Below are positions 2,373 to 42,731 of a DNA stretch of 64,000 bases, in pieces (the stretch's first letter is position 1; the number at the start of each line of letters is the position of its first letter). The stretch is from a phage. The notes under the pieces are model-generated. The model was not told the origin of the DNA, ran no database searches, and saw nothing but the letters and a program-made list of their open reading frames with translations. Made by a program: the position numbers and the translations under genes. The DNA is taken from the sequence record PX880103.1. One strand, written 5' to 3'.

Positions 2373-2833
2373 TAGTAAAGGTCCTCAGAGTAAAGTTCTT
2401 TTTCACTACCACCACGTTCAATACGTACTTGTCCAGCGTAAGTTGCAATAATCATTGCTTCTTCACGTGTCCAATAATTACTATATTGGTCAATAAACCC
2501 TTGGTCATCATCACAAACTTGCTGAGTAACTAATTGAGATTTAACTACATCTAAAACTTCTGCCATATCTTTAGAATAATGACGAGCACCTGGAATAATA
2601 AGAGTTCGTCCATCTTTTAATTTAAAACGGTTGGCTGCACAGACAATTCGTCGTTGATACTTTTGGTTTTCATCCCAGTACGCAGTCTGCCAACAAATTT
2701 CAGGAACTTCATCTAAAACATTTTGTTCTGTATATTCACCACCGTGAGAAGCTAATTTAGCAGCCAGACTTTCCGGAGTCTCACGCGACAAAGCTTTATC
2801 TAACAGAGCTAAACGTTCTTTAAAAGTTTTCAT
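2372..2833 (-). CDS. Hypothetical protein (153 aa)
   Basis: ORF track; stop/start overlap with flanking ORFs. Confidence 0.55.
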
Positions 2834-3159
2834 TTAAACCATCCTTTAATACGTTGCCACAAAGTTTTCTGTTGAGCTTTGTTAACACCAATTGAGCGAA
2901 TAACTGGTTGAGATTCCTGGAATTCTTTATAATCAGCAAGGTAAATTTCGTAAGCTGCATCCGTAAAGGAACTTATCGCTGCCATAAAATTATTGCGAAT
3001 ACCTACTGGAGCATCTTTACTTTCACGAATAATCATGTATTTACCAGTCTTAATCTTTACAATAGTTCCAAGATAAGCTCCATGGTACCAAATATCCCAA
3101 CCCTCTTGAGTAGGTTCTGCGCAACGACGAAGTTCATTAACAATTTCTAACTTGTTCAT
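2830..3159 (-). CDS. Hypothetical protein (109 aa, motA.1 position)
   Basis: ORF track; 4-nt overlap with upstream gene. Confidence 0.55.
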
Positions 3160-3169
3160 TATTTATTCC

Positions 3170-3805
3170 TCACAGTTCAGATGCTACAGTGATTACAGCT
3201 TCAATGTTTTCTGCCGAGCGTTTAATATCAAGATACACATTACCGTTTTTAGCGATTTTACATGACATTCCGATATCAGTAAATTTCTGAATATGATGTT
3301 CCATCATTTTGTATCCAAAAATTCGCATATTTCCATTATTGTTAATTTCAAAATTACGAATTCCGTGAGTGCGTTTTTCTAAAATAGCAAGATAGTTACT
3401 GCGATAAGTTTCAACCTTTTTAAGAACAAATCCATTTTCATCTAAAAGTTTTAACATGAGGTCTTTATCTTCTTCCATATCGGAAGTAATCTCACGAGCT
3501 TTACGAGTTGCTCGTTTTTTCAGCAGTTCCGGAGCATTTTCCTGTGCATATAAAGTTGCTGCATTTGAAATAATATCTTGAGCTTCACCAGTAATGATTA
3601 ATCCATCACCAGATTTCTCCACTAGGCCTTTTTTAATCAATACCCCAATATTACTATTAACTACCGCGTTACCTAAATCTGGATGCACCTCACGAACTTC
3701 TGCGGCTGTAATGAAATCTTTCTTAGCAATGGTAATTAAAATCGCAGCAGTTTTTTCATTCAGAACATCGTTAGAAGCTTTGATGATGTAAGTTACTTTA
3801 GACAT
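3170..3805 (-). CDS. motA: Middle-transcription activator MotA
   Basis: 211 aa, the size of T4 MotA; ATG confirmed at 3803-3805 behind a GGAG SD in the conserved leader. Confidence 0.9.
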   Translation of the reverse strand: MSKVTYIIKASNDVLNEKTAAILITIAKKDFITAAEVREVHPDLGNAVVNSNIGVLIKKGLVEKSGDGLIITGEAQDIISNAATLYAQENAPELLKKRATRKAREITSDMEEDKDLMLKLLDENGFVLKKVETYRSNYLAILEKRTHGIRNFEINNNGNMRIFGYKMMEHHIQKFTDIGMSCKIAKNGNVYLDIKRSAENIEAVITVASEL

Positions 3806-3935: not shown

Positions 3936-4085
3936 TTACTGCATGACTGTGATAACTGTCATGATAACACGTTGAATTCCAAACGCAAGAAGACCTCCTG
4001 CTACGGCTGGAACAACACCTAACCCTGCCAGTAAAATGCTACCAGATACTAATGCAGCGCTTGTAATACCAATGAATGGACTCAT
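3936..4085 (-). CDS. Small hydrophobic peptide (49 aa)
   Basis: Below track cutoff; ATG overlaps gene 52 stop; MSPFIGITSAALVSGSILLAGLGVVPAVAGGLLAFGIQRVIMTVITVMQ, one or two TM helices. Confidence 0.4.
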   Translation of the reverse strand: MSPFIGITSAALVSGSILLAGLGVVPAVAGGLLAFGIQRVIMTVITVMQ

Positions 4086-5410
4086 TTGATTTCCTCTAAA
4101 TCTTTGGTGTATTCAGTAACTACATCAGTAGTTTTCCAATATTCGTTTTCTTCTTTTTTAGCTTTAGCTTCTTCAGCAAGTTTCTTTGCTTCATCGGAAG
4201 TCATATGAAAAATATTCATTCCAACTAGTTTATCAACATAAGAAGAATACATATCGATTTTCGAAAGTTCTTCGGTCAGTTCTTTACGAGTTTTACCCTG
4301 TACAACAATTTCACCTGAAATTACTTTCTTAATGAAATGTGCCTTGGCAAAGGCTAAACGAAAAGCTGACTCAGTTTCTTTAATTTTGTTATCAATTCGT
4401 TTTTGGACATAAGTTTTACGAACTTCAACAAAGTCTTTAATTAAATCAACTACGTTATCGTAAACTTGTAGTTTTCCTTTCTCATTAATAACCGTAATAT
4501 TCTGAGAACGACGCTCAATCAACCCGAAGTCTTTCATAATTTTTGCATGGCGTTCTTCTTCGTTATCGCTCAAAGAGTATTCTTTGCGGAATTTAACTTT
4601 GAAGCCAAAACCATGCTCACCACAAGCATCATCCCATGTAATGAAGCCTTTATCTTCAAGTGGGTCTAAGATTTTACTCACATAAGTTTCACGATCATAC
4701 TTGTACGGAATCTCAGTGATATGCATTTGAGTTCGTGAAGTAAACTTATATGTTCCACGAATTTCATATTGCCCATCAATTTCAACGACTTCACCGCGAA
4801 ATTCTGGGAATTCTACCTTCGGTTTAGTTACTTTCTTTCCTTGAAGAGCTTGCAGTACAGCTTTCTTGACAGAAGAAACACTATGAGGAAGAATGTAAGT
4901 TGCATAACCAGTTGCAATACCGGAAACGCCATTAAGAAGAACAGTAGGAATAATAGGCAAATAGAAAGCAGGCGGAATGTGTTCTTTATCTTGATGTACC
5001 GGAGCATATTCAGTATCTTTATATACGTTATAGAAATTTTTACTTACACGAGCAAAAATATAACGACTTGCTGCTGCTTTTTGAACGGTACGAGAACCAA
5101 AGTTTCCTTGACCATCTAACAGAGGAAAGTTATTATTCCAGGTGTTAGCCATCAAAGCGCCCGCATCTTGTGCAGAGTTTTCGCCATGGTGATATCCAAG
5201 GTCCGCTACACCACCTGCGATAGAAGCGAGTTTGTGAAACTTATCTTTATTTCCTCGCGCCAAATCAAGAGCTCGAGCAATAACAAATCGTTGAACTGGC
5301 TTAAATCCATCAATCATATTTGGAATAGCACGATTTTCAACCGTGTACATAGCATAAGCCAATGCTTCATTATCAATGATACTTTTTAAATCGCGATTAT
5401 TCAGTTGCAT
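4082..5410 (-). CDS. 52: DNA topoisomerase II medium subunit gp52
   Basis: 442 aa as in T4 gp52; GyrA-like breakage-reunion sequence; ATG confirmed. Confidence 0.95.
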   Translation of the reverse strand: MQLNNRDLKSIIDNEALAYAMYTVENRAIPNMIDGFKPVQRFVIARALDLARGNKDKFHKLASIAGGVADLGYHHGENSAQDAGALMANTWNNNFPLLDGQGNFGSRTVQKAAASRYIFARVSKNFYNVYKDTEYAPVHQDKEHIPPAFYLPIIPTVLLNGVSGIATGYATYILPHSVSSVKKAVLQALQGKKVTKPKVEFPEFRGEVVEIDGQYEIRGTYKFTSRTQMHITEIPYKYDRETYVSKILDPLEDKGFITWDDACGEHGFGFKVKFRKEYSLSDNEEERHAKIMKDFGLIERRSQNITVINEKGKLQVYDNVVDLIKDFVEVRKTYVQKRIDNKIKETESAFRLAFAKAHFIKKVISGEIVVQGKTRKELTEELSKIDMYSSYVDKLVGMNIFHMTSDEAKKLAEEAKAKKEENEYWKTTDVVTEYTKDLEEIK

Positions 5411-9126: not shown

Positions 9127-11304
9127 TTAGGCCGCAAGGGCCTTCATAGTTTTAGCGATTTGGGAAACTTCATCATCACTTAAAGAGTTGCGATAACCGA
9201 TGAAGTCGGAAACAATACGGAATTTCTTGGTAAACTCAGCAACCATTTTATCACTGTTTTTTGAAGCATTATTTGATAATACATCAAAAAGATTAGTTAC
9301 TGTCCAGATGTCATGACCGATGGTATCTTTTCCACCATTGAAATATACGCCACGTAATGAACTAACTATATTAGCGAGTCGTGTATATTCTTCAGAAACT
9401 TCATCTGTACTGAAGTACTTCATCATAAAATCTAGTTCAGGATACTTGATAATTTTATCAATATATCGTTGAGCTGAACTTGAATAACCTACATACTTAT
9501 CATAATCTACATCATCAAAAGCATCTACATATAAATCACGCAGAGTTTCAAAAATACATTGGCACTGACCGAGTTCTTTTACCTTTTTCTGTAAAAGCGG
9601 ACGAATAACATAAAATTCATTAATGCCAATAAGATTAGCCATACGAATCAAAATATTCATAGATGGATGACAAAGAGATGTAGTACCATCCATAGAGAAA
9701 ATATCAGAACGATGCATATACGCTACATAACCAGTAATTTCATCTGCTTCTGATGTGAGCGTAAATAATTCCTCTTTTTCCCAGCGCCCGTCTTTAATTT
9801 CAAACTTAAATGCTGTAGCAGCTTTAGGACGAGGAGCTTTACTTTTAACTACCTTTGGAATATAACTTTTTACTAAAGCTTCAATTTCTGACAAATAATG
9901 AATGTTAACTTCATCACTTTCAAACATCGCCATAATATCAGGAAGTAAATCAATCTGCGATTCTACTTCTGGATTAATAAACAGAAGGCGTTCGTTATGA
10001 TGAATATTCAAAGTGTTATTAAATTCACTATCATCTAACGCTCGTGCTAATCCACGAACAATATTAACACGATTTTTAATATTATCAATAACGATATTAA
10101 TTTTTGTTGTATTAATACCAAACAGACGATAACTTGATGCAACGGCTGAAGTTTCATGACTTTGCTTAATGCGCTTCAGTCGAGGGTCAAGATTTACTTC
10201 ATACACAACTCCTGCATTGCATAACTTACTGTCAGGTTCAAACATGCTCTGCATCTTTTTATATGACAGATTTTTAGTCGTGAATTTGACTGAATTACTA
10301 ATCATATAATCTCGAGCAGAATACCCCATCTTCATCAATTCACGATATGTGTGACGAGGAGATGTAGATTCTTTAAATCGTTTTACATCTTCATTAAATG
10401 CTTTCTCACTAAGTTCTTTAACTCGTTCAATAATATTTTTACGAGTACGATCATCCAGTGAAAGAGCCTCACGAGATGGAGCAATATCAAGTGAACCCAT
10501 TGGAAACTTAATGTAATTCACTTCATTGCGGATGCTTAACCAGTTACGATCTCTAATAACACCATCGATAGGATAAACAATACCGCCATAGATAGCATAT
10601 AATCCACCGCGATCAGGCCAGTATCTTTCTGGATTTACGCCGTAATAATCATCGAAATCCGGAAAATAATCAATTTCGCGGTCAAGACCATTAATGATAG
10701 CCAAATCTTTGAATGGTCGCATGATATAAGAAACTTCATAAGCAAAGTTTCTAAAGTCTTTTTCTTCAACTGGAACTACGATTTCAATACCAGTTTTATC
10801 ATCTGGACCCATTTCTTTTACGAATGTAGGTTTAATCTGTGGACCATCACCATCCATGTAAGCTACATAACCACGAATTTCACCTTTATGATACGAAGTA
10901 ATACTAAATGTATCAGTATAACTAAACGGAGATTTAGAACCTAAACCAAATCCGCCAATGAAATCGTTAGATTCAGCCTTAGATGAACTGAAGTATGAAT
11001 TATACAGTCCAGGAGAATTATCATCACCCTGAATATCAAAATCACTCATACCCGGACCAAAATCTCGACAAACAAATCGTGGATCTAAACGTCCAGGAAC
11101 TTGTATGATAAATTTTTCAGGATTTCCATTGAGAGCATGGGCATCAATCATGTTAGTAATCAATTCACGAACTACTGCGCGAATCTTGTTTGTATACAAA
11201 TCAGATGACAGAATTTTAAATACTTTAGGAGATGCTGTGATGCTAAATGCTTTTGATTTAGAACCATTACCAAGAATTGTTTCTTTTTCAGTGGTGATAA
11301 TCAT
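9127..11304 (-). CDS. rIIA: rIIA protein
   Basis: 725 aa as in T4 rIIA; ATG confirmed. Confidence 0.9.
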
Positions 11305-11314
11305 AATTTCCTCA

Positions 11315-11518
11315 TTAATTCATATTACGTTTAATAACTTCGGCAACTTCTAGTAGTTCATCTTTAGTTGCAGTGTCGGATTGAATTTTATCTCTAATAT
11401 CTTTAAAGCGGTTTTTAAATTCTTCGGCTTCTCCCATATCGAAAAAGCGTTGAATGATTCTATATTCTCGATGAACTGCTTTATCAAAAAGCTCTAAATT
11501 TACTTTATATGATTTCAT
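11315..11518 (-). CDS. rIIA.1: rIIA.1 small protein (67 aa)
   Basis: Position and size match T4 rIIA.1; ATG confirmed. Confidence 0.65.
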
Positions 11519-11543
11519 TTCAATATCCTCATTTGCCCAATTA

Positions 11544-11573
11544 ATTATACCACATCCTTGTGGTAAAGTAAAC
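11544..11573 (-). promoter_or_regulatory. Early promoter for rIIA.1/rIIA (GTTTAC-N18-TATAAT)
   Basis: Minus strand GTTTACtttaccacaaggatgtggTATAAT; -35 overlaps gene 39 stop. Confidence 0.65.
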
Positions 11574-13390
11574 TACTGGCTCATCCATTCTTTACGAAGG
11601 TCAGCATTATCTCCCATGAGCATTTCAAAAAGCTCTTTCCAGTTCTCAGGAAGTTTAACAACATCATATACTGGGTTTTGAATCATCTCACGATATTCAG
11701 ATTTTTCCAAAGAGCCAAGTCCTTTAATATAACGGATGCTATGTTTAGGTAGAGCATCTTTGGCACTCTCATATTCAGCGACTGTATAAAACCATTCTTG
11801 TTTTTTACCGACCTGAGCGATGATTACAGGAGTTTTGACAAAGCGAATTCTTCCTTGTTCAAACAGTTCTGGCCAATTACTAAAAAATCCGAGCAGAGAA
11901 GGATAAATGCTTCCTAGACCATCATGGTCAGCATCAGTCATAATAGCAATATTATGATAATTCAAGTTTTCAGCTTTTTCACCGAGAACTAATCCAGTGA
12001 TTGCGCAAATATCAAATAGTTCTTTGTTTTTAAGCATATCGGCATATGACATACCCCAGCTATTAAGAACTTTACCGCGTAATGGATAACCACCGTGAAG
12101 TTCTTTATCACGAACATCAATAAGATATCCGATAGCAGAATCACCCTCGGTTAAGAACAATGTAGTGTCAGCATCTTTACCGCAAAGATTCGCTTTAATA
12201 TGTTTATGAACCTTAGCTTTAGAAGCCTTTTTAGCTGCTTTAGTTTCTGCTGCTTTTTCTGCTGCCAATTTACGAGCTAATGCTGCTTCAATAATTGGCA
12301 TTAGAATTGCTTCATTATTTAGAATAGCGCGTGAAATCTTTTTAGCATCAAGTTGAATATGACTACGAATTTCACCAAATGGAGAAGTCAAACGCTCTTT
12401 AGTTTGAGAGTCAAATCGCATGTTTTTCATATCGCGAACAAACATAACGATAGTCAAACATTCTTTAACACGTGCTTTAGTCACATCAATTTTGAACTTA
12501 CGTTTGATTTGTGGAATAAGGTCTTCACAAATATCATCCATAACACAGTCAATGTGATGGCCACCATTCTTAGTATGAATGTTATTGACGTATGTTAATT
12601 GACGAAAACCATCCGGTGAACGACCAACCGCAATAGAACAATTTTCTTGTTCTTGAACGATAGCATGTTCATCATATTGGCGTGCGTATTTCTTAAAATT
12701 ACCCTGAACCTTTTTACCATTAAAGGTAAATTGAATATCAGGATAAACAACAGCAAGTGTTTGGAGACGATCTAGTGTAATGTCAAGATAAACTTGGGAC
12801 AGCTCATTAGTTTCAAATGACATAAAATCAGGAATGAAAGTAACACGGGTTCCTTTCCATTTTCCAGGAATATCTTCCCATGATTTATTTTCCATGCCGT
12901 TTGAACAACGAACTACAATATTATTTTGACCATCGCCAGTTTCACCAACAAACATCACAGAAAAAATGTTTGTCAAACTAGAACCAACACCATTCATACC
13001 GCCAGTGACGCGTTCTTTATCATCACCAAAGTTACCACCTGCTTTTGGAATAGTCCATGCAGCAACAGGACCAGGAATTTCTTCACCGGTAGGTGTTTTA
13101 ACCATTGCCTGCGGAATACCACGACCGTTATCTTCAACTGTTACTTGATTGTTTTTAATAGTAACATTAATTTTATTTGCGAATTTAAACTTAGTACGAA
13201 TACCTTCATCTACTGAGTTATCGATAATTTCATCAATAAGCTTAACAAGACCAGGTACATACTGAACACTTTCCCATTTACCAAACAGAAAGCGCTCATG
13301 CATTTCATTAGCAGAAGAGCCAATGTACATGCCGCTACGCTTTTTGATATGTTCAATATCGCTCAGAATTTTAATTTCATTCTTAATCAT
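11573..13390 (-). CDS. 39: DNA topoisomerase II large (ATPase) subunit, uninterrupted gene 39
   Basis: 605 aa from ATG at 13390 (track adds a GTG codon); N-terminus MIKNEIKILSDIEHIKKRSGMYIGS as in T4 gp39; continues through the region that is gene 60 in T4. Confidence 0.9.
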   Translation of the reverse strand: MIKNEIKILSDIEHIKKRSGMYIGSSANEMHERFLFGKWESVQYVPGLVKLIDEIIDNSVDEGIRTKFKFANKINVTIKNNQVTVEDNGRGIPQAMVKTPTGEEIPGPVAAWTIPKAGGNFGDDKERVTGGMNGVGSSLTNIFSVMFVGETGDGQNNIVVRCSNGMENKSWEDIPGKWKGTRVTFIPDFMSFETNELSQVYLDITLDRLQTLAVVYPDIQFTFNGKKVQGNFKKYARQYDEHAIVQEQENCSIAVGRSPDGFRQLTYVNNIHTKNGGHHIDCVMDDICEDLIPQIKRKFKIDVTKARVKECLTIVMFVRDMKNMRFDSQTKERLTSPFGEIRSHIQLDAKKISRAILNNEAILMPIIEAALARKLAAEKAAETKAAKKASKAKVHKHIKANLCGKDADTTLFLTEGDSAIGYLIDVRDKELHGGYPLRGKVLNSWGMSYADMLKNKELFDICAITGLVLGEKAENLNYHNIAIMTDADHDGLGSIYPSLLGFFSNWPELFEQGRIRFVKTPVIIAQVGKKQEWFYTVAEYESAKDALPKHSIRYIKGLGSLEKSEYREMIQNPVYDVVKLPENWKELFEMLMGDNADLRKEWMSQ

Positions 13391-13417
13391 CACTTATCCT
13401 CGTTTGGTTTCGGGAAT

Positions 13418-13443
13418 ATTATACTCCAGTAATCATAAAGCTA
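13418..13443 (-). promoter_or_regulatory. Middle-promoter-like element (MotA-box-like TAGCTTTA, 12 bp, TATAAT) upstream of gene 39
   Basis: Minus strand cctTTAGCTTTATgattactggagTATAAT directly after the 13443-13460 hairpin; one mismatch to the TGCTTtA core. Confidence 0.45.
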
Positions 13444-13460
13444 AAGGCCCGAAGGCCTTT
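13443..13460 (-). terminator. GGCCCGAAGGCC hairpin
   Basis: aaaggcc-cgaa-ggccttt; follows the stop of the lipoprotein gene. Confidence 0.5.
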
Positions 13461-13720
13461 TATTTAAAACGAATAGTCGAATCCTTGAAGAATAGTCCAG
13501 AACATACTGTTCCTTCTACTTTCTGCCCGGTAGGTCCAATAGCACGAAATCCAGTATGTTGGAAATCATTTTCAGAGCAACCGAACCAGTTATATCCAGT
13601 GATTTCAATATTAGTAAAACCACTTGAAGACAAAACTTTGGTTGCATTATCAGCATCAGTACATCCTACTAAAGACACTACTAATACTAATGCTGCGATA
13701 GAACGATTAATATATTTCAT
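13460..13720 (-). CDS. Putative lipoprotein (86 aa, 39.1 position)
   Basis: From ATG at 13720 (track start is GTG): MKYINRSIAALVLVVSLVGC, signal peptide with lipobox LVGC. Confidence 0.55.
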   Translation of the reverse strand: MKYINRSIAALVLVVSLVGCTDADNATKVLSSSGFTNIEITGYNWFGCSENDFQHTGFRAIGPTGQKVEGTVCSGLFFKDSTIRFK

Positions 13721-13725
13721 AATTT

Positions 13726-14097
13726 TCACTTAAATTTAATGGCTTGAAGAAGACTAATAACTCTCAAGCGGCTTCTTTCATCTTTAACTGTAAAGGAAAG
13801 AGGGTCACCAGATTTCATAGTGATAGTGCATCCAAAATCAAAATTTTCGGGAACTTCTTCGAAGAAGTCAAATTCTTCAGCATAAATTAGAACATTACTC
13901 TGCATACTGTGAAGAATTTTTCCATTATTTCCAGACGCTGTACTAATCATCGTAACATTATGACCTTTCATATCTTCAACGATAAATTCGCTTGTAGATA
14001 TTACAGCATTAATAGAACCATTCCTATAAATAGCAGACATTAGATATTTCTTTTCTTCGCCTTCGCGAATACGATATTTCTTACCGATTTTAAACAT
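13726..14097 (-). CDS. Hypothetical protein (123 aa, 39.2 position)
   Basis: ATG at 14097 (track start is GTG). Confidence 0.5.
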   Translation of the reverse strand: MFKIGKKYRIREGEEKKYLMSAIYRNGSINAVISTSEFIVEDMKGHNVTMISTASGNNGKILHSMQSNVLIYAEEFDFFEEVPENFDFGCTITMKSGDPLSFTVKDERSRLRVISLLQAIKFK

Positions 14098-14099
14098 AA

Positions 14100-14276
14100 T
14101 CACCCTTTAAGTAAGTCGTAAAAACCACCATTCACATGCTTAGGAGCAGAAGGCCGACGAGTAGACAAACGATGACATTTAGGGCAAACATCATTTTCTC
14201 GTTCAGAAATCTTTTTAATTTTTTCATATTCATGCCCGCAATCTTCGGATTGGCATTTATAATCATACATTGGCAT
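14100..14276 (-). CDS. Small zinc-ribbon protein (58 aa)
   Basis: Below track cutoff; MPMYDYKCQSEDCGHEYEKIKKISERENDVCPKCHRL..., CxxxxC...CxxC; fits exactly between flanking genes. Confidence 0.5.
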   Translation of the reverse strand: MPMYDYKCQSEDCGHEYEKIKKISERENDVCPKCHRLSTRRPSAPKHVNGGFYDLLKG

Positions 14277-24370: not shown

Positions 24371-24889
24371 TCAATAACCTCGGTCTTGACGAGCGAAGTT
24401 TTCAGCATTTTTCAGATAATAAAGTTTAAAGATTTCTTCAGCCGTAAGACCGAGACCTTGGAACATGTTCAGAACGAAATGAAGAATATCAATCATTTCG
24501 AATTTAATTTCCAACTGGTCTTGTGGAGATAAGTCAGTAATCAGAGTTTCACGACGTTCACCGTGTTGCGACTTCCAAGGCTTCCATACAGCAGATGCAT
24601 CTTTTTCGCCATTGCTCATACCACCAAGAGAAGTCAGAAGTTCGCGGAATTCATCATCAATATAATCTTTCTGATTACGCAGCCAATCAACAACTTCACC
24701 TGCAGTAGCCAAATCATCAGGATGACGGTTATATTCAGGTTTATCTTTAGCTAAACGAACCTGCAGAGATTTCTGCATATCAAGCATAACTTGCAACGGA
24801 TCTTTTTCATCACCGAGAATATCCCAGTATTCATTTTGAGCTTTATCAGCGCCTTCGATCAGTTGACTACATTCGTTGAAATGTGGCAT
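24371..24889 (-). CDS. 56: dCTP pyrophosphatase (dCTPase/dUTPase) gp56
   Basis: 172 aa as in T4 gp56; MazG-like acidic motifs; ATG confirmed. Confidence 0.85.
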   Translation of the reverse strand: MPHFNECSQLIEGADKAQNEYWDILGDEKDPLQVMLDMQKSLQVRLAKDKPEYNRHPDDLATAGEVVDWLRNQKDYIDDEFRELLTSLGGMSNGEKDASAVWKPWKSQHGERRETLITDLSPQDQLEIKFEMIDILHFVLNMFQGLGLTAEEIFKLYYLKNAENFARQDRGY

Positions 24890-24890
24890 G

Positions 24891-25541
24891 TTATTTTTCC
24901 TTTCTTATGAAGTTTTCTATCATATGTCTATAGCAGATATTAGGATAACCTGCCTTGACAGCTATTTTATTAAATTTTGTGCGCTTAGGTCTATTATTAT
25001 AAACCCATAATTCATAAAGCGCATCATAACTATTCCATATTTCTCCTCGCCTAGGATTTGGTAAACCATATCGAGGTGAATTTTTACCGCTAAATCTTCC
25101 TTTTCGGGCTTTACTCATATTAGCCTTGGCTTCATCGGATATAATTTTACCTTTATGAGCTAGACGCATTTTGGCTTTAGTTTCTTCTGGGGTCTTTTTG
25201 CCTTTAATCCATGACGGCTTGCCATATCTAGGATTATTTTCACCCGAGAAAAGAACAGAGTTTTGGATTTTAAGGGTTTCTATTAATCTACTTGTTAATT
25301 TAACACCTTTATTATATCGCATTAAATTTACAGCATAATGCAATCCTCTCACATCTGGATATATTTTAGTTAATAATCTATGAGCTATAAAATGCTCACG
25401 CGCAGTTAACTCAACAAGATTGTTTTTGTCATCTGCTCCTCCTATACATCTAGGAATTATATGATGGCGTTCTTTATATCCGCCAAGATGCCGGCATTTA
25501 GCTTTTGTAATTAAAGCCGAGTAAATTTTTTGGTAATTCAC
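24891..25541 (-). CDS. Free-standing HNH homing endonuclease with NUMOD-like repeats
   Basis: GTG start with AAAGGA SD; HNH core GGYKERHHIIPRCIGGADDKNNLVELTAREHFIAH; repeated GxNxPxYGK / K(A/G)K motifs; C-terminus paralogous to 41877..42731. Confidence 0.75.
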   Translation of the reverse strand: MNYQKIYSALITKAKCRHLGGYKERHHIIPRCIGGADDKNNLVELTAREHFIAHRLLTKIYPDVRGLHYAVNLMRYNKGVKLTSRLIETLKIQNSVLFSGENNPRYGKPSWIKGKKTPEETKAKMRLAHKGKIISDEAKANMSKARKGRFSGKNSPRYGLPNPRRGEIWNSYDALYELWVYNNRPKRTKFNKIAVKAGYPNICYRHMIENFIRKEK

Positions 25542-27005: not shown

Positions 27006-27632
27006 TTAACCTCTATTCATAAAAGCATTAAAAATTTGGTCATCAATAGAAACATTTACTTTAGACTGTTTTTCTGATGGTAATTCATATCCACATATTA
27101 CAATTTTGTGATCAATATCAAAATACACAGAAGCAATATGATTAATGATGTTTTCAGTAAAGTCTAAATCAACATCAATATCTTTTTGACCACAGCCCAA
27201 AGGATAAATAATGCGAGTAATTCGATTATCTTTAACAAAGATTCCACCGACATACTCTGTGCTGCGTTTAAAGTCTACACGCCGACGAAATGAAAAATAT
27301 TCAGGCTCTTTATGAGCTCGGCTCATAGGGCACAACGAATAACTAGAATAAGAGATGTCAAATCCTACGCCTTCAATATGAACTAAATTGTCATGATTAA
27401 ACCAATTATAATCATATGCCAAGTCCATTAGATTGTCATATGTGAAAGGCACCGGATTAACATCATTGGTCACAAGCATATAATTAGCAACTGCTATAAT
27501 TTCATTATTTTTAACGAATACAAACCGTGATTGATGCGAATGACCTGGACCTGCGTTTTCACGATTAATGATATAACACTGGGCACCTTTATATTTGTAC
27601 GTGTCTTTACACTTGTGCATTTGATAAAGCAT
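27006..27632 (-). CDS. Hypothetical protein (208 aa, 61.2 position)
   Basis: ORF track; ATG confirmed. Confidence 0.6.
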   Translation of the reverse strand: MLYQMHKCKDTYKYKGAQCYIINRENAGPGHSHQSRFVFVKNNEIIAVANYMLVTNDVNPVPFTYDNLMDLAYDYNWFNHDNLVHIEGVGFDISYSSYSLCPMSRAHKEPEYFSFRRRVDFKRSTEYVGGIFVKDNRITRIIYPLGCGQKDIDVDLDFTENIINHIASVYFDIDHKIVICGYELPSEKQSKVNVSIDDQIFNAFMNRG

Positions 27633-31518: not shown

Positions 31519-32361
31519 TTAATCAACTGCTATTGGATGAATAGCATTAAACTTATGAAATGCTTCTGATTTTTCTTTACGCGAAACACACATGCGAAGA
31601 ACCTTTAGTGGTTCATCTTCTTCACCCAACGATTTTCGTTTTTCAATATTCGATGTTTTCCAACGAGCTTGCTCTGGAAACTCTCTATTGATTTGCTCAA
31701 GCGCTCTATTATGTTTAGAATTACTACGAATTGAACTGCACCCGCCAGGAGCTTGTGCTTTTCCAGATACAACCAGATATTTGAACAAGGCCAAATGCGG
31801 ATAACCTTGATTAATTAAATTGAGAAATGCATACATATCTTCGCATAAATCAATTTTTCCATACCCAATTTGTTCTGTCGTAAGTTTTCCGAGGTCATAC
31901 CATGTATTCGTGAATCCATATGAATTTTCACGATAATTACCCCAAGATGAAGTAATTTTAAAAATTGGTAAACGAGCATGACCATGATAATACCCGCAAT
32001 CCATGGCATCTTCAACGTATTGAATCAATTCATAGAACTGTTCACGAGTTAATTGATTAACTTTATCCACACAACGACGATCATCTCGTTTTCGCATTGA
32101 ACTCATACGAATAGTAGTATCATCGTCAATCATCCAGATTCGTTGACCTGCATACATATCAGTAATTGCTTTACGAGTACCGGCAATTCCGTTTACATCA
32201 TCAGGAATAGTTATAATTTTAGCTCTAGACCCATAGGCATCATAATAAGCTTTTTCTTCATGTTCACGCACTACAATATGCGGTTCATAATCAGTCGGAA
32301 ACATATCAAGGGCAGAAACTGCCCCTACGCGCTGATAACTTGGAATTACAAATTGAATCAT
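31519..32361 (-). CDS. Putative DNA glycosyltransferase, GT-A fold (DxD), in the beta-gt position
   Basis: About 280 aa from ATG at 32361 (overlaps gene 42 stop); N-terminal VIPSYQR and WMIDDDTTI motifs typical of family-2 glycosyltransferases; does not resemble T4 beta-gt. Confidence 0.5.
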   Translation of the reverse strand: MIQFVIPSYQRVGAVSALDMFPTDYEPHIVVREHEEKAYYDAYGSRAKIITIPDDVNGIAGTRKAITDMYAGQRIWMIDDDTTIRMSSMRKRDDRRCVDKVNQLTREQFYELIQYVEDAMDCGYYHGHARLPIFKITSSWGNYRENSYGFTNTWYDLGKLTTEQIGYGKIDLCEDMYAFLNLINQGYPHLALFKYLVVSGKAQAPGGCSSIRSNSKHNRALEQINREFPEQARWKTSNIEKRKSLGEEDEPLKVLRMCVSRKEKSEAFHKFNAIHPIAVD

Positions 32362-33098
32362 TTCCACTCACCGTTATAATCTTTTTTCACAATATGAGTT
32401 TCGCCAGTATTCCACCAATGATCAACCAAGTAAAAATGACGAGAATATACATGAAGACTTCCAACATTCCATATAATAGAACCTGCTTTATACTGACGAG
32501 TTGAATCGCCTGCATTCAAATCAGATACTAATTTATCTAATACGTATTTTTGCCATGCATAATCATTACGGAATCCGAAGACTACGTCATTTGAACGCAT
32601 GCTTACTACTGCATTGACTTTCTTATCACGAATCAGGTACTGTACTGTATTCGTACACATGAAATCTGACATACCATCTTTATTGTAGTCAAACTGCATG
32701 GATGGACGAGTATAAATCATGATACCGCGTCGAGAATCAGGATTTTGACCAAGTTCAGCTAAACACATATCATACTGGGCATAGTTATCTTCTGACCAGA
32801 TAGCCCAACCATAATTCGAGTTAATTTCACCTTTAGAAGATGCTACTTGTTGCCAAATCTTCGGTGTTTCACCCGGAATATCTTTAACGAACAAGCTCTT
32901 AGATTTATACCATTCAAGTTCACGCTGAATGTATTCATCATTAAGAGCGCCAAAAATAAACGGTTCATCTGCTATAAATGATGCGCCAATAATTTCAATA
33001 GTTTTAACACCAGTTTTATCAACTACGAAATCTTTTTCTTTTAATGCAAGCCCCAAATGAAGACGGATTTCTTCAACTGTCATAGAGTCACTAATCAT
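32358..33098 (-). CDS. 42: dCMP hydroxymethylase gp42
   Basis: 246 aa as in T4 gp42; thymidylate-synthase-like; ATG confirmed. Confidence 0.9.
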   Translation of the reverse strand: MISDSMTVEEIRLHLGLALKEKDFVVDKTGVKTIEIIGASFIADEPFIFGALNDEYIQRELEWYKSKSLFVKDIPGETPKIWQQVASSKGEINSNYGWAIWSEDNYAQYDMCLAELGQNPDSRRGIMIYTRPSMQFDYNKDGMSDFMCTNTVQYLIRDKKVNAVVSMRSNDVVFGFRNDYAWQKYVLDKLVSDLNAGDSTRQYKAGSIIWNVGSLHVYSRHFYLVDHWWNTGETHIVKKDYNGEWK

Positions 33099-41876: not shown

Positions 41877-42731
41877 TCACAATGAAGAAAATTCTTTAAC
41901 TAAAGCCTGTAATGAAGCCTCTATTGGATATCCATTCTTAACTAACATTTTTCTAAACATCACATGTTTAGGACGATTATATGATATCCACAATTCATAC
42001 AATTTATCTTTATTATCCCAATGATAGCCTTTTCGTCGAGACGCTATATGAGCTTTTCTAATCTCCGGATTTTTCCAACTAGCAGCTACTGAATTTGATA
42101 TAGCTATTTTATATTCAGGTTTTGATAAAGCAGCACGAACAGCCTTTTGGTGTTTAATTTTATTTTCTTCGTTATTAAACCATTCCCTTGAAGCCATTGA
42201 AATTTTTTGTTTTGTTTTAAAATTATTTAATCTTTCTTTGTTATCTTTCCTATTTTTTGCTACTGAAAAATATTTTAATGCCCTTTCTCTAGCAGCATTT
42301 CTATTTTGTGGATTTGAATAATACTGTTGAAGCCTTTTTGATATTGTGTCACTTACATCCTGTCTTATAAAACTATATTCAGCAGCTATTAAATCAACTT
42401 CGGCTAAAGATAAATTTTTATATGTTTTTCCTGACATCATTCTATTTAAAGCATTTAGCATTTTTCCATTTTTACCTTTTGCTAATAAGAAATGTGCTTT
42501 GAAATGATTAAAATGACTTAAATTAACTAAATTCCATGTAGATTTTAAATATTCAGGAAATATTGATTTAGGAAGCACGTGGTGTGCTTCCGTTTTACCT
42601 GGAGTTTTAACAGTTGAATTCATAGAAATAAAATTAATGTAAGACTTGGCGTCTTCTTCACTCAACGCTAATTTTTCAACTAATTCCTTTATTAAAAATT
42701 CATCATTAATATCAAGTTTAAAATTCTTCAC
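41877..42731 (-). CDS. Free-standing HNH homing endonuclease (second copy)
   Basis: 284 aa, GTG start with AAAGGA SD; HHVLPKS...HFNHFKAH core; C-terminus KDKLYELWISYNRPKHVMFRKMLVKNGYP parallels the 24891..25541 protein. Confidence 0.7.
   Translation of the reverse strand: MKNFKLDINDEFLIKELVEKLALSEEDAKSYINFISMNSTVKTPGKTEAHHVLPKSIFPEYLKSTWNLVNLSHFNHFKAHFLLAKGKNGKMLNALNRMMSGKTYKNLSLAEVDLIAAEYSFIRQDVSDTISKRLQQYYSNPQNRNAARERALKYFSVAKNRKDNKERLNNFKTKQKISMASREWFNNEENKIKHQKAVRAALSKPEYKIAISNSVAASWKNPEIRKAHIASRRKGYHWDNKDKLYELWISYNRPKHVMFRKMLVKNGYPIEASLQALVKEFSSL

Follow-up and report, generated by a model that had tools for sequence, protein, structure and literature searches.

An unsplit T-even topoisomerase gene 39 with an empty MobA site in a 64-kb phage window

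The window, by which we mean the whole 64-kb stretch of phage DNA analysed here, carries on its minus strand at 11573..13390 what is almost certainly an intact, never-split T-even gene 39, encoding a 605-aa GyrB-like subunit and retaining an empty MobA site. According to both the ORF list and the raw sequence, the interval is one open frame of 1818 nt, comprising 605 sense codons and a TAG stop. The first-pass annotation had described a single 605-codon gene 39 at 11573-13390, and these coordinates are exact, although the strand had gone unstated. The ATG lies at 13390-13388 and the stop codon at 11575-11573. The program-made ORF opens one codon upstream, with GTG at 13393; the ATG is the better start, because a GAGGA Shine-Dalgarno sequence stands 6 nt upstream of it and the T4, T2, T6 and RB14 annotations all begin with MIKNEIK. 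The product starts with MIKNEIKILSDIEHIKKRSGMYIGS, and the gp39 N-terminus quoted in the first-pass annotation matches this beginning of the 605-codon frame. The longest competing ORF within the interval, across all other frames of the list, has no more than 96 aa. An open frame of 605 codons in AT-rich DNA is far beyond chance, at an estimated probability of ~0.93^605, or <1e-18. The gene and the features within it or at its start are as follows.

11573..13390, minus strand: gene 39, unsplit "gp60plus39", type II DNA topoisomerase large (GyrB-like) subunit (ORF, sequence, near-identity to RB14/T2/T6)
13397..13401, minus strand: Shine-Dalgarno GAGGA, 6 nt before the gene 39 ATG (read from the sequence; identical in T4)
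12944..13252, minus strand: GHKL ATPase core, residues 47-149 (Pfam HATPase_c, E 2e-9, above cut-off)
within 12944..13252, minus strand: GHKL boxes, namely the N-box EIIDN (54), G1 box DNGRGIP (87) and G2 box GGMNGVG (130) (motif scan)
12239..12643, minus strand: transducer domain, residues 250-384 (Pfam DNA_gyraseB PF00204, E 1.4e-13, above cut-off)
11915..12163, minus strand: TOPRIM domain, residues 410-492, contiguous (Pfam Toprim 17.5 bits, under the gathering cut-off of 23.1 bits; otherwise covered by motifs and by alignments to cellular enzymes in the PDB)
11579..11836, minus strand: TOPRIM-associated C-terminal domain, residues 519-604; in T4 it belongs to gene 60 (Pfam TOPRIM_C, 30.7 bits, cut-off 29)
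11915..11920, minus strand: codons 491-492, GGT CTA (Gly-Leu), adjacent and in frame; the T4 counterpart is the take-off GGA, UAG and the 50-nt gap
11909..11972, minus strand: 64-nt segment replaced by the MobA element in T4 and HY01, gene nt 1419-1482, codons 473-494, intact here (codon alignment and alignment of the window with T2, T6, RB14, T4 and HY01)

The full set of diagnostic type IIA B-subunit motifs is present in the gene 39 product. In addition to the GHKL boxes, the motif scan places the QTK loop of the transducer at residues 329-331 and a PLRGK motif at residue 436. The TOPRIM motifs lie in the same ORF: EGDSA with the catalytic glutamate E415, and the acidic cluster DADHD at 486-490 with D486, D488 and D490. 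In T4 the split falls between EGDSA and DADHD, whereas in the phage of the window both motifs are carried by one polypeptide. The order of GHKL ATPase, transducer, TOPRIM and C-terminal domain is that of the cellular type IIA B modules (GyrB, ParE and the N-terminal half of eukaryotic Topo II), which share the conserved motifs and align across residues ~5-603, with distant similarity (E 1e-36 to 1e-59). In the PDB search, human Topo IIα/β, yeast Topo II and ParE/GyrB each align as one continuous piece that crosses the T4 split point. A further difference is that the phage enzyme has relaxation but no supercoiling activity (PMC11461880).

The closest counterparts are the unsplit genes of other T-even phages, as expected from the first-pass description of a T2/T6-like arrangement: the T2 and T6 genes have the same length, and their products are 99.7-99.8% identical to that of the window. 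We compared the product with RB14 gp60plus39 (ACP30647.1), T2 gp39 (BBF63163.1) and T6 gp39 (YP_010067157.1), all of 605 aa, and found identities of 605/605 (100%), 604/605 (99.8%) and 603/605 (99.7%), respectively. T2 gp39 differs by F70L, and T6 gp39 by D173T and Q526H. At the DNA level the genes are 97.6% (RB14), 96.7% (T2) and 96.5% (T6) identical, with differences of 2.4-3.5% and ungapped alignments over 1818 nt. The ratio of synonymous to nonsynonymous differing codons is 42:0 for RB14, 57:1 for T2 and 59:2 for T6; this pattern shows that the gene is functional and under strong purifying selection. RB14, T2 and T6 also share the gene neighbours, with 39.1 upstream and rIIA.1 and rIIA downstream. 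The T6 gp39 chain in PDB entry 8ylu, and in five more entries, is matched by the same search, with residues 1-605 aligned to 1-605 (8ylu_C) at 1385 bits; the search also returns 8yo3, an artificially fused T4 gp39-gp60 chain. Topo II of T2 and T6 consists of two subunits, gp39 and gp52, T4 being the only known three-subunit case (PMC11461880), and for T6 both cryo-EM structures and relaxation activity with gp52 in vitro have been reported (Nat Commun 2024, PMC11461880). Near-identity to T6 gp39 suggests that the product of the window is likewise active in ATP-dependent relaxation with gp52. The locus thus combines what characterizes an unsplit T-even large subunit: a colinear ORF of 605 codons, the GHKL and transducer motifs, a contiguous TOPRIM domain, the gene order and a gp52 partner.

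Comparison with T4 locates the difference precisely. T4 gp39 and gp60 were taken from NC_000866, and the annotated 50-nt gap was removed before comparison. By blastp, residues 1-473 of the product match T4 gp39 1-473 at 466/473 positions (99%) and residues 472-605 match T4 gp60 27-160 at 128/134 (96%), both without gaps. Alignment with T4 gp39 and gp60 and with T2 gp39, which the first-pass annotation had proposed as a check, is therefore colinear throughout, the figure for T2 being the 604/605 given above. The proposal also named what would speak against a single gene: a gp60 part that does not align, or a frameshift or bypass-like gap needed to keep the alignment. Neither was found, the gp60 part being 96% identical and ungapped. 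The match of the C-terminal region to gp60 holds as described except in extent: the gp60 counterpart, which had been put at 150 aa, spans only the final 134 aa (472-605). Nothing in the product of the window corresponds to two element-encoded pieces of the T4 proteins, the 43 aa that end gp39 and the ~26-30 aa that open gp60.

At the codon level, T4 and the window agree through codon 473 and again from codon 495 (ATT TAT CCT...). At the bypass site the window reads GAT GGT CTA GGA AGC in frame, whereas T4 reads GAT GGA (TAG + 50 nt ... GGA) TTA GGT TCT, and 9/10 codons around the take-off site carry synonymous changes between the two. Recoding at this site is neither needed nor possible, since a stop, a gap and a pair of take-off and landing codons are all missing. 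The 64-nt segment at 11909..11972 is the empty, parental site of the MobA element and holds the MobA target. It is base-for-base identical to T2, as are the next 18 nt, through gene nt 1500; its identity to the element-encoded copy in T4 is 76%, over a homologous stretch of 46 nt (blastn). Outside the site, the T4 segment with genes 39, mobA/60.1 and 60 shows 95.8% DNA identity over 1752 nt that begin in the 39.1 region and take in the 5' part of gene 39, and 98.5% over 609 nt that comprise the gene's 3' part and the rIIA.1 region after it, and its flanking regulatory sequences are the same as those of the window. Of the two, only T4 has the ~1.1-kb element, in which the 43-aa gp39 tail, mobA and the ~30-aa gp60 head are accompanied by the 50-nt gap and a recoded version of the 46-nt homologous stretch. 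The window keeps the 64 nt that are replaced in T4, and encodes one polypeptide where T4 encodes two.

These junctions match the published description of the MobA element (Manning & Atkins 2022, bioRxiv 10.1101/2022.08.31.505936). The preprint describes the parental state in RB14 numbering, with insertion at AA 466-473 and the 3' end of the element after D490/G491, to which the T4 clade adds 9 nt. It also states that 64 nt are deleted at the insertion, that the nick site lies within this region, that the copy which the element supplies in their place shares 67-81% identity with the parental sequence, and that the T4 element belongs to MobA element clade 1. It further describes, in Aeromonas phages, fused ORFs in which sequences derived from the element persist. 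Bonocora et al. 2011, as summarised by Manning & Atkins 2022, reported that MobA nicks T2 within the 64-nt region and that T4 is protected by the 50-nt insert rather than by silent polymorphisms. The phage of the window is predicted to be a MobA-sensitive recipient, because its 64-nt region and the next 18 nt are identical to those of T2, the reported nicked substrate.

We searched the whole 64-kb window for the MobA/bypass cassette or its remains. The T4 segment 2853-3860, used as a blastn query with word size 7, matches the window only in the 46-nt homologous stretch (76%) and at chance level. By tblastn against the whole window, T4 gp60.1 and the annotated T4 MobA give nothing at or near gene 39, and the element-encoded gp39 tail (~43 aa) and gp60 head (~30 aa) give only chance-level matches elsewhere in the window (E > 0.1). 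The sequence of the 50-nt coding gap has no match in the whole window. A second gp60-like sequence was likewise sought: T4 gp60 matches only 11977..11576, the 3' end of the gene 39 ORF (tblastn, whole window). Intact MobA of HY01 has no match at the gene 39 locus; it matches the window at 25541..25266 and 42647..42051 instead, and we rejected these two matches as cassette remnants, as they belong to separate free-standing genes for Mob-family homing endonucleases at 24891..25541 and 41877..42731. The searches with T4 and HY01 queries bear out the first-pass claim that there is no separate gene 60 and no bypass element. A remnant of the insertion, which that annotation had suggested looking for, was not found in the window; the element between T4 genes 39 and 60 is, however, mobA according to the T4 annotation and Manning & Atkins 2022, and not mobE as had been supposed. 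Membership in the T4-type MobA/gene 60 bypass cassette was rejected, since the locus has no split ORF, no mobA between halves, no extensions and no 50-nt gap. The "hit-and-run" type of re-fused ORF (Aeromonas clade 7, Manning & Atkins) was also discarded: the product has no extra residues relative to T2, T6 and RB14 and no homology to element peptides.

The surroundings of gene 39 and the gene of its partner subunit comprise the following features.

11544..11572, minus strand: promoter-like site of sigma-70 type, TTTACT-17-(TG)TATAAT, upstream of rIIA.1 (10/12 consensus match with TG extension)
11315..11518, minus strand: rIIA.1, 67 aa, the next gene downstream (Pfam T4_RIIA1, E 1.4e-33)
13418..13460, minus strand: upstream control region with a C(UUCG)G hairpin, AAAGGCCTTCGGGCCTTT, at 13460-13443, the MotA-box-like TAGCTTTA, a 12-nt spacer and TATAAT at 13423-13418 (read from the sequence)
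4082..5410, minus strand: gene 52, GyrA-like cleavage-religation partner subunit, 442 aa (Pfam DNA_topoisoIV, E 9e-77)

The promoter-like site starts at the base directly after the gene 39 stop codon, and T4 is matched at every base (71/71) over the 71 nt that lead from the stop codon across the intergenic spacer into rIIA.1. TTTACT-17-TATAAT is the best promoter-like match in the region, although such sites overall are no more frequent than in shuffled sequence. The rIIA.1 promoter that had been placed directly after gene 39 is, in this sense, a good consensus match (10/12) that is conserved in T4, and its standing as a promoter is that of a consensus match. Upstream of gene 39 there is one mismatch to T4 over 83 nt, and we take the MotA-box-like TAGCTTTA with its TATAAT to be a putative middle promoter of the T4 type. 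The C(UUCG)G hairpin was considered as a terminator and rejected, its T-run being insufficient; a terminator scan of 11200-13800 found none. At the position matching gene 52, phage Paracelsus is annotated with a type II topoisomerase medium subunit.

To count the unsplit state among phages we used a 171-nt junction query, which spans both T4 insertion points, and tblastn with a 92-aa junction peptide. These replaced coverage by a 2.5-kb megablast query, which was rejected as a count: pieces up to 1750 nt apart are joined there, so that T4-type records would count as covered. The 171-nt query is covered in one uninterrupted piece in 455 of 499 phage records. The other 44 match it in part; six of them are among the matches listed, and these are all T4-type and match by one flank only. 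The T4 cassette (T4 2780-3800) is present in 43 records. The 92-aa peptide is found in one piece in 1453 of 1528 Straboviridae-like (T4-like) phage records, the unsplit ones including RB69, RB16, CC31 and phages of Klebsiella, Acinetobacter, Aeromonas, Vibrio and Rhizobium. The unsplit state is thus seen in ~91% of close relatives and ~95% of the T4-like phages in the collection. It is ancestral, and the T4 state derived, because it is the majority state across T4-like phages and the cellular homologues are continuous at this place; the first-pass claim of an ancestral arrangement agrees with both observations, and the literature had already drawn the same conclusion (Manning & Atkins 2022; PMC11461880). 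The same annotation had proposed that the unsplit gene helps to place the phage relative to T4. It does so to the extent of excluding the ~43 cassette carriers, or ~8-9% of Tequatrovirus records; as a marker of placement it is weak, because the cassette is mobile and horizontally transferred and the unsplit state is that of the majority. The phage is a Tequatrovirus. The best match over the first 25 kb among records in the collection is ~95-96% identical.

An intact gene could also have arisen by loss, if an ancestor had carried the MobA/bypass cassette and lost it through precise excision or through recombination with a cassette-free phage. Manning & Atkins 2022 show that loss happens, in the form of fused Aeromonas ORFs with element remnants. 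T-even genomes are mosaic, and the identity to T4 changes along the gene: nt 1486-1818 are near-identical (4 mismatches in 333 nt), as is the run from the stop codon into rIIA.1 (71/71), while identity falls to 91-93% in the 200 nt on the 5' side of the site. Against this, the element-encoded gp39 tail and gp60 head have left no trace by tblastn, the product has exactly the 605 aa of T2, T6 and RB14, and the 64-nt site matches T2 at every base but shares just 76% identity with the copy that the T4 element encodes. The unsplit state is moreover that of the large majority, so no loss event need be assumed. We regard such a restoration as very improbable, while noting that restoration by recombination with a naive allele would leave no mark and looks in sequence like a gene that was never invaded. 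There is a similarly slim, marginally better chance for the broader proposition that the phage is perhaps a naive recipient for MobA homing, its unsplit state perhaps restored after an earlier invasion.

Still more remote, to the point of being negligible, is an artefact or pseudo-fusion, in which the ORF would be mis-assembled, mis-annotated or inactive and the gene really interrupted by an intron, intein, frameshift or other mobile element. This is raised only since introns, inteins and homing endonucleases are frequent in T-even genes, and since two Mob-family genes lie elsewhere in the window. Aligned with T2, T6 and RB14, gene 39 has no gap over its 1818 nt, in DNA or in protein, and no extra residues, which rules out an interruption by intron, intein or frameshift. 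Its product is colinear with the solved and enzymatically active T6 protein, and the substitutions are all or nearly all synonymous. The reading as a never-split gene 39 with an empty MobA site remains by far the best explanation, and the sequence holds nothing that speaks against it. Under this reading, gene 39 would yield one B-type subunit by ordinary colinear translation, and this subunit would pair with gp52 to give an A2B2 type IIA topoisomerase of two kinds of subunit, like the enzymes of T2 and T6. T4 and a minority of its relatives differ in that a ~1.1-kb MobA homing-endonuclease element has taken the place of 64 nt inside the TOPRIM-coding region; this event turned the one gene into two, 39 and 60, and brought in the 50-nt coding gap, which is bypassed by ribosomes.

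The unsplit arrangement of gene 39 is already known: hundreds of genomes have it in their annotation, publications describe it, and it has been resolved in protein structures. The significance of the present case is small beyond correct annotation, and if the phage were a naive MobA recipient or carried a restored allele, this would be a small addition to the known story of MobA and bypassing, and no new kind of system. The correct entry is one gene for the topoisomerase II large subunit, called 39 or "60plus39", with no recoding event at this place. The divergence from RB14, which is all synonymous, and from T2 and T6, which is nearly so, shows a tightly constrained protein, and the locus offers a clean example of the empty site for the mobile MobA/bypass cassette.

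Homing endonucleases of the Mob family are encoded at two places in the window, one of them beside a dCTPase gene:

24371..24889: ORF of 172 aa directly before the 216-aa endonuclease ORF, counterpart of gene 56, which the annotation of phage Paracelsus lists as the dCTPase gene
24891..25541, minus strand: free-standing homing-endonuclease ORF of 216 aa (Pfam HNH and NUMOD3; phrog_655, E 1e-59)
41877..42731, minus strand: another Mob-family ORF, of 284 aa (match to the homing endonucleases of phrog_655, E 3.5e-45)

MobA of phage HY01, the endonuclease of the element that splits the T4 topoisomerase gene, shows 49% identity to the first 92 aa of the 216-aa product and 27% identity to the 284-aa product over 207 aligned residues. 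The phage therefore has Mob-type endonucleases, while its gene 39 has none. DNA of the 216-aa ORF is found in only 59 phage records, from phages of Escherichia, Klebsiella and Yersinia, a patchy spread typical of a mobile element.

Within gene 39, the T4 reference (L001, NC_000866) reads TTG ATT CGT (Leu-Ile-Arg) at codons 326-328. The same codons are TTT GAC TCT (Phe-Asp-Ser) in the window (12415..12407) and TTT GAT TCT (Phe-Asp-Ser) in HY01. The T4 variant amounts to a compensated -1/+1 frameshift directly ahead of the conserved QTK loop of the transducer domain, and may have arisen in the laboratory strain or be a mistake in the old reference sequence.

Upstream of gene 39 lie the following features:

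13443..13460, minus strand: C(UUCG)G tetraloop hairpin, AAAGGCCTTCGGGCCTTT, overlapping the 39.1 stop codon
13460..13729, minus strand: gene 39.1 homologue, 86-89 aa (match to phrog_902, function unknown)
13726..14103, minus strand: ORF of 125 aa between 39.1 and 39.2 (match to phrog_622, function unknown)

The T4 copy of the hairpin is identical. The T4 bypass, in which ribosomes skip a 50-nt coding gap in gene 60, likewise has a CUUCGG loop, in its take-off stem-loop. The 39.1 homologue is longer than its T4 equivalent (65 aa) and matches no Pfam family. Its N-terminus (MKYINRSIAALVLVVSLVGC...) resembles a signal peptide and closes with LVGC, similar to a lipobox, suggesting that the product is a lipoprotein. 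The 125-aa ORF bears a weak resemblance to a goF family (phrog_13003, E 2.5e-7); T4 lacks an ORF at this position, whereas RB14 (RB32ORF005c) and T6 possess one.

Further along the window are an anti-defence gene and a glycosyltransferase gene:

27006..27632, minus strand: anti-defence ORF of 208 aa (Pfam AdfA, the anti-DarT factor A family, matched over its full length with E 1.5e-136)
31519..32367, minus strand: glycosyltransferase of the TET-associated glycosyltransferase family, 282 aa (Pfam TAGT, E 1.2e-9)

The glycosyltransferase gene is flanked by a 393-aa ORF on one side and a 246-aa ORF on the other, which we take to be uvsX and gene 42, respectively, from ORF size and gene order. At this position T4 carries the beta-glucosyltransferase, and T2 and T6 another enzyme. 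The TAGT gene may be a better marker of T2/T6-type DNA modification than gene 39.
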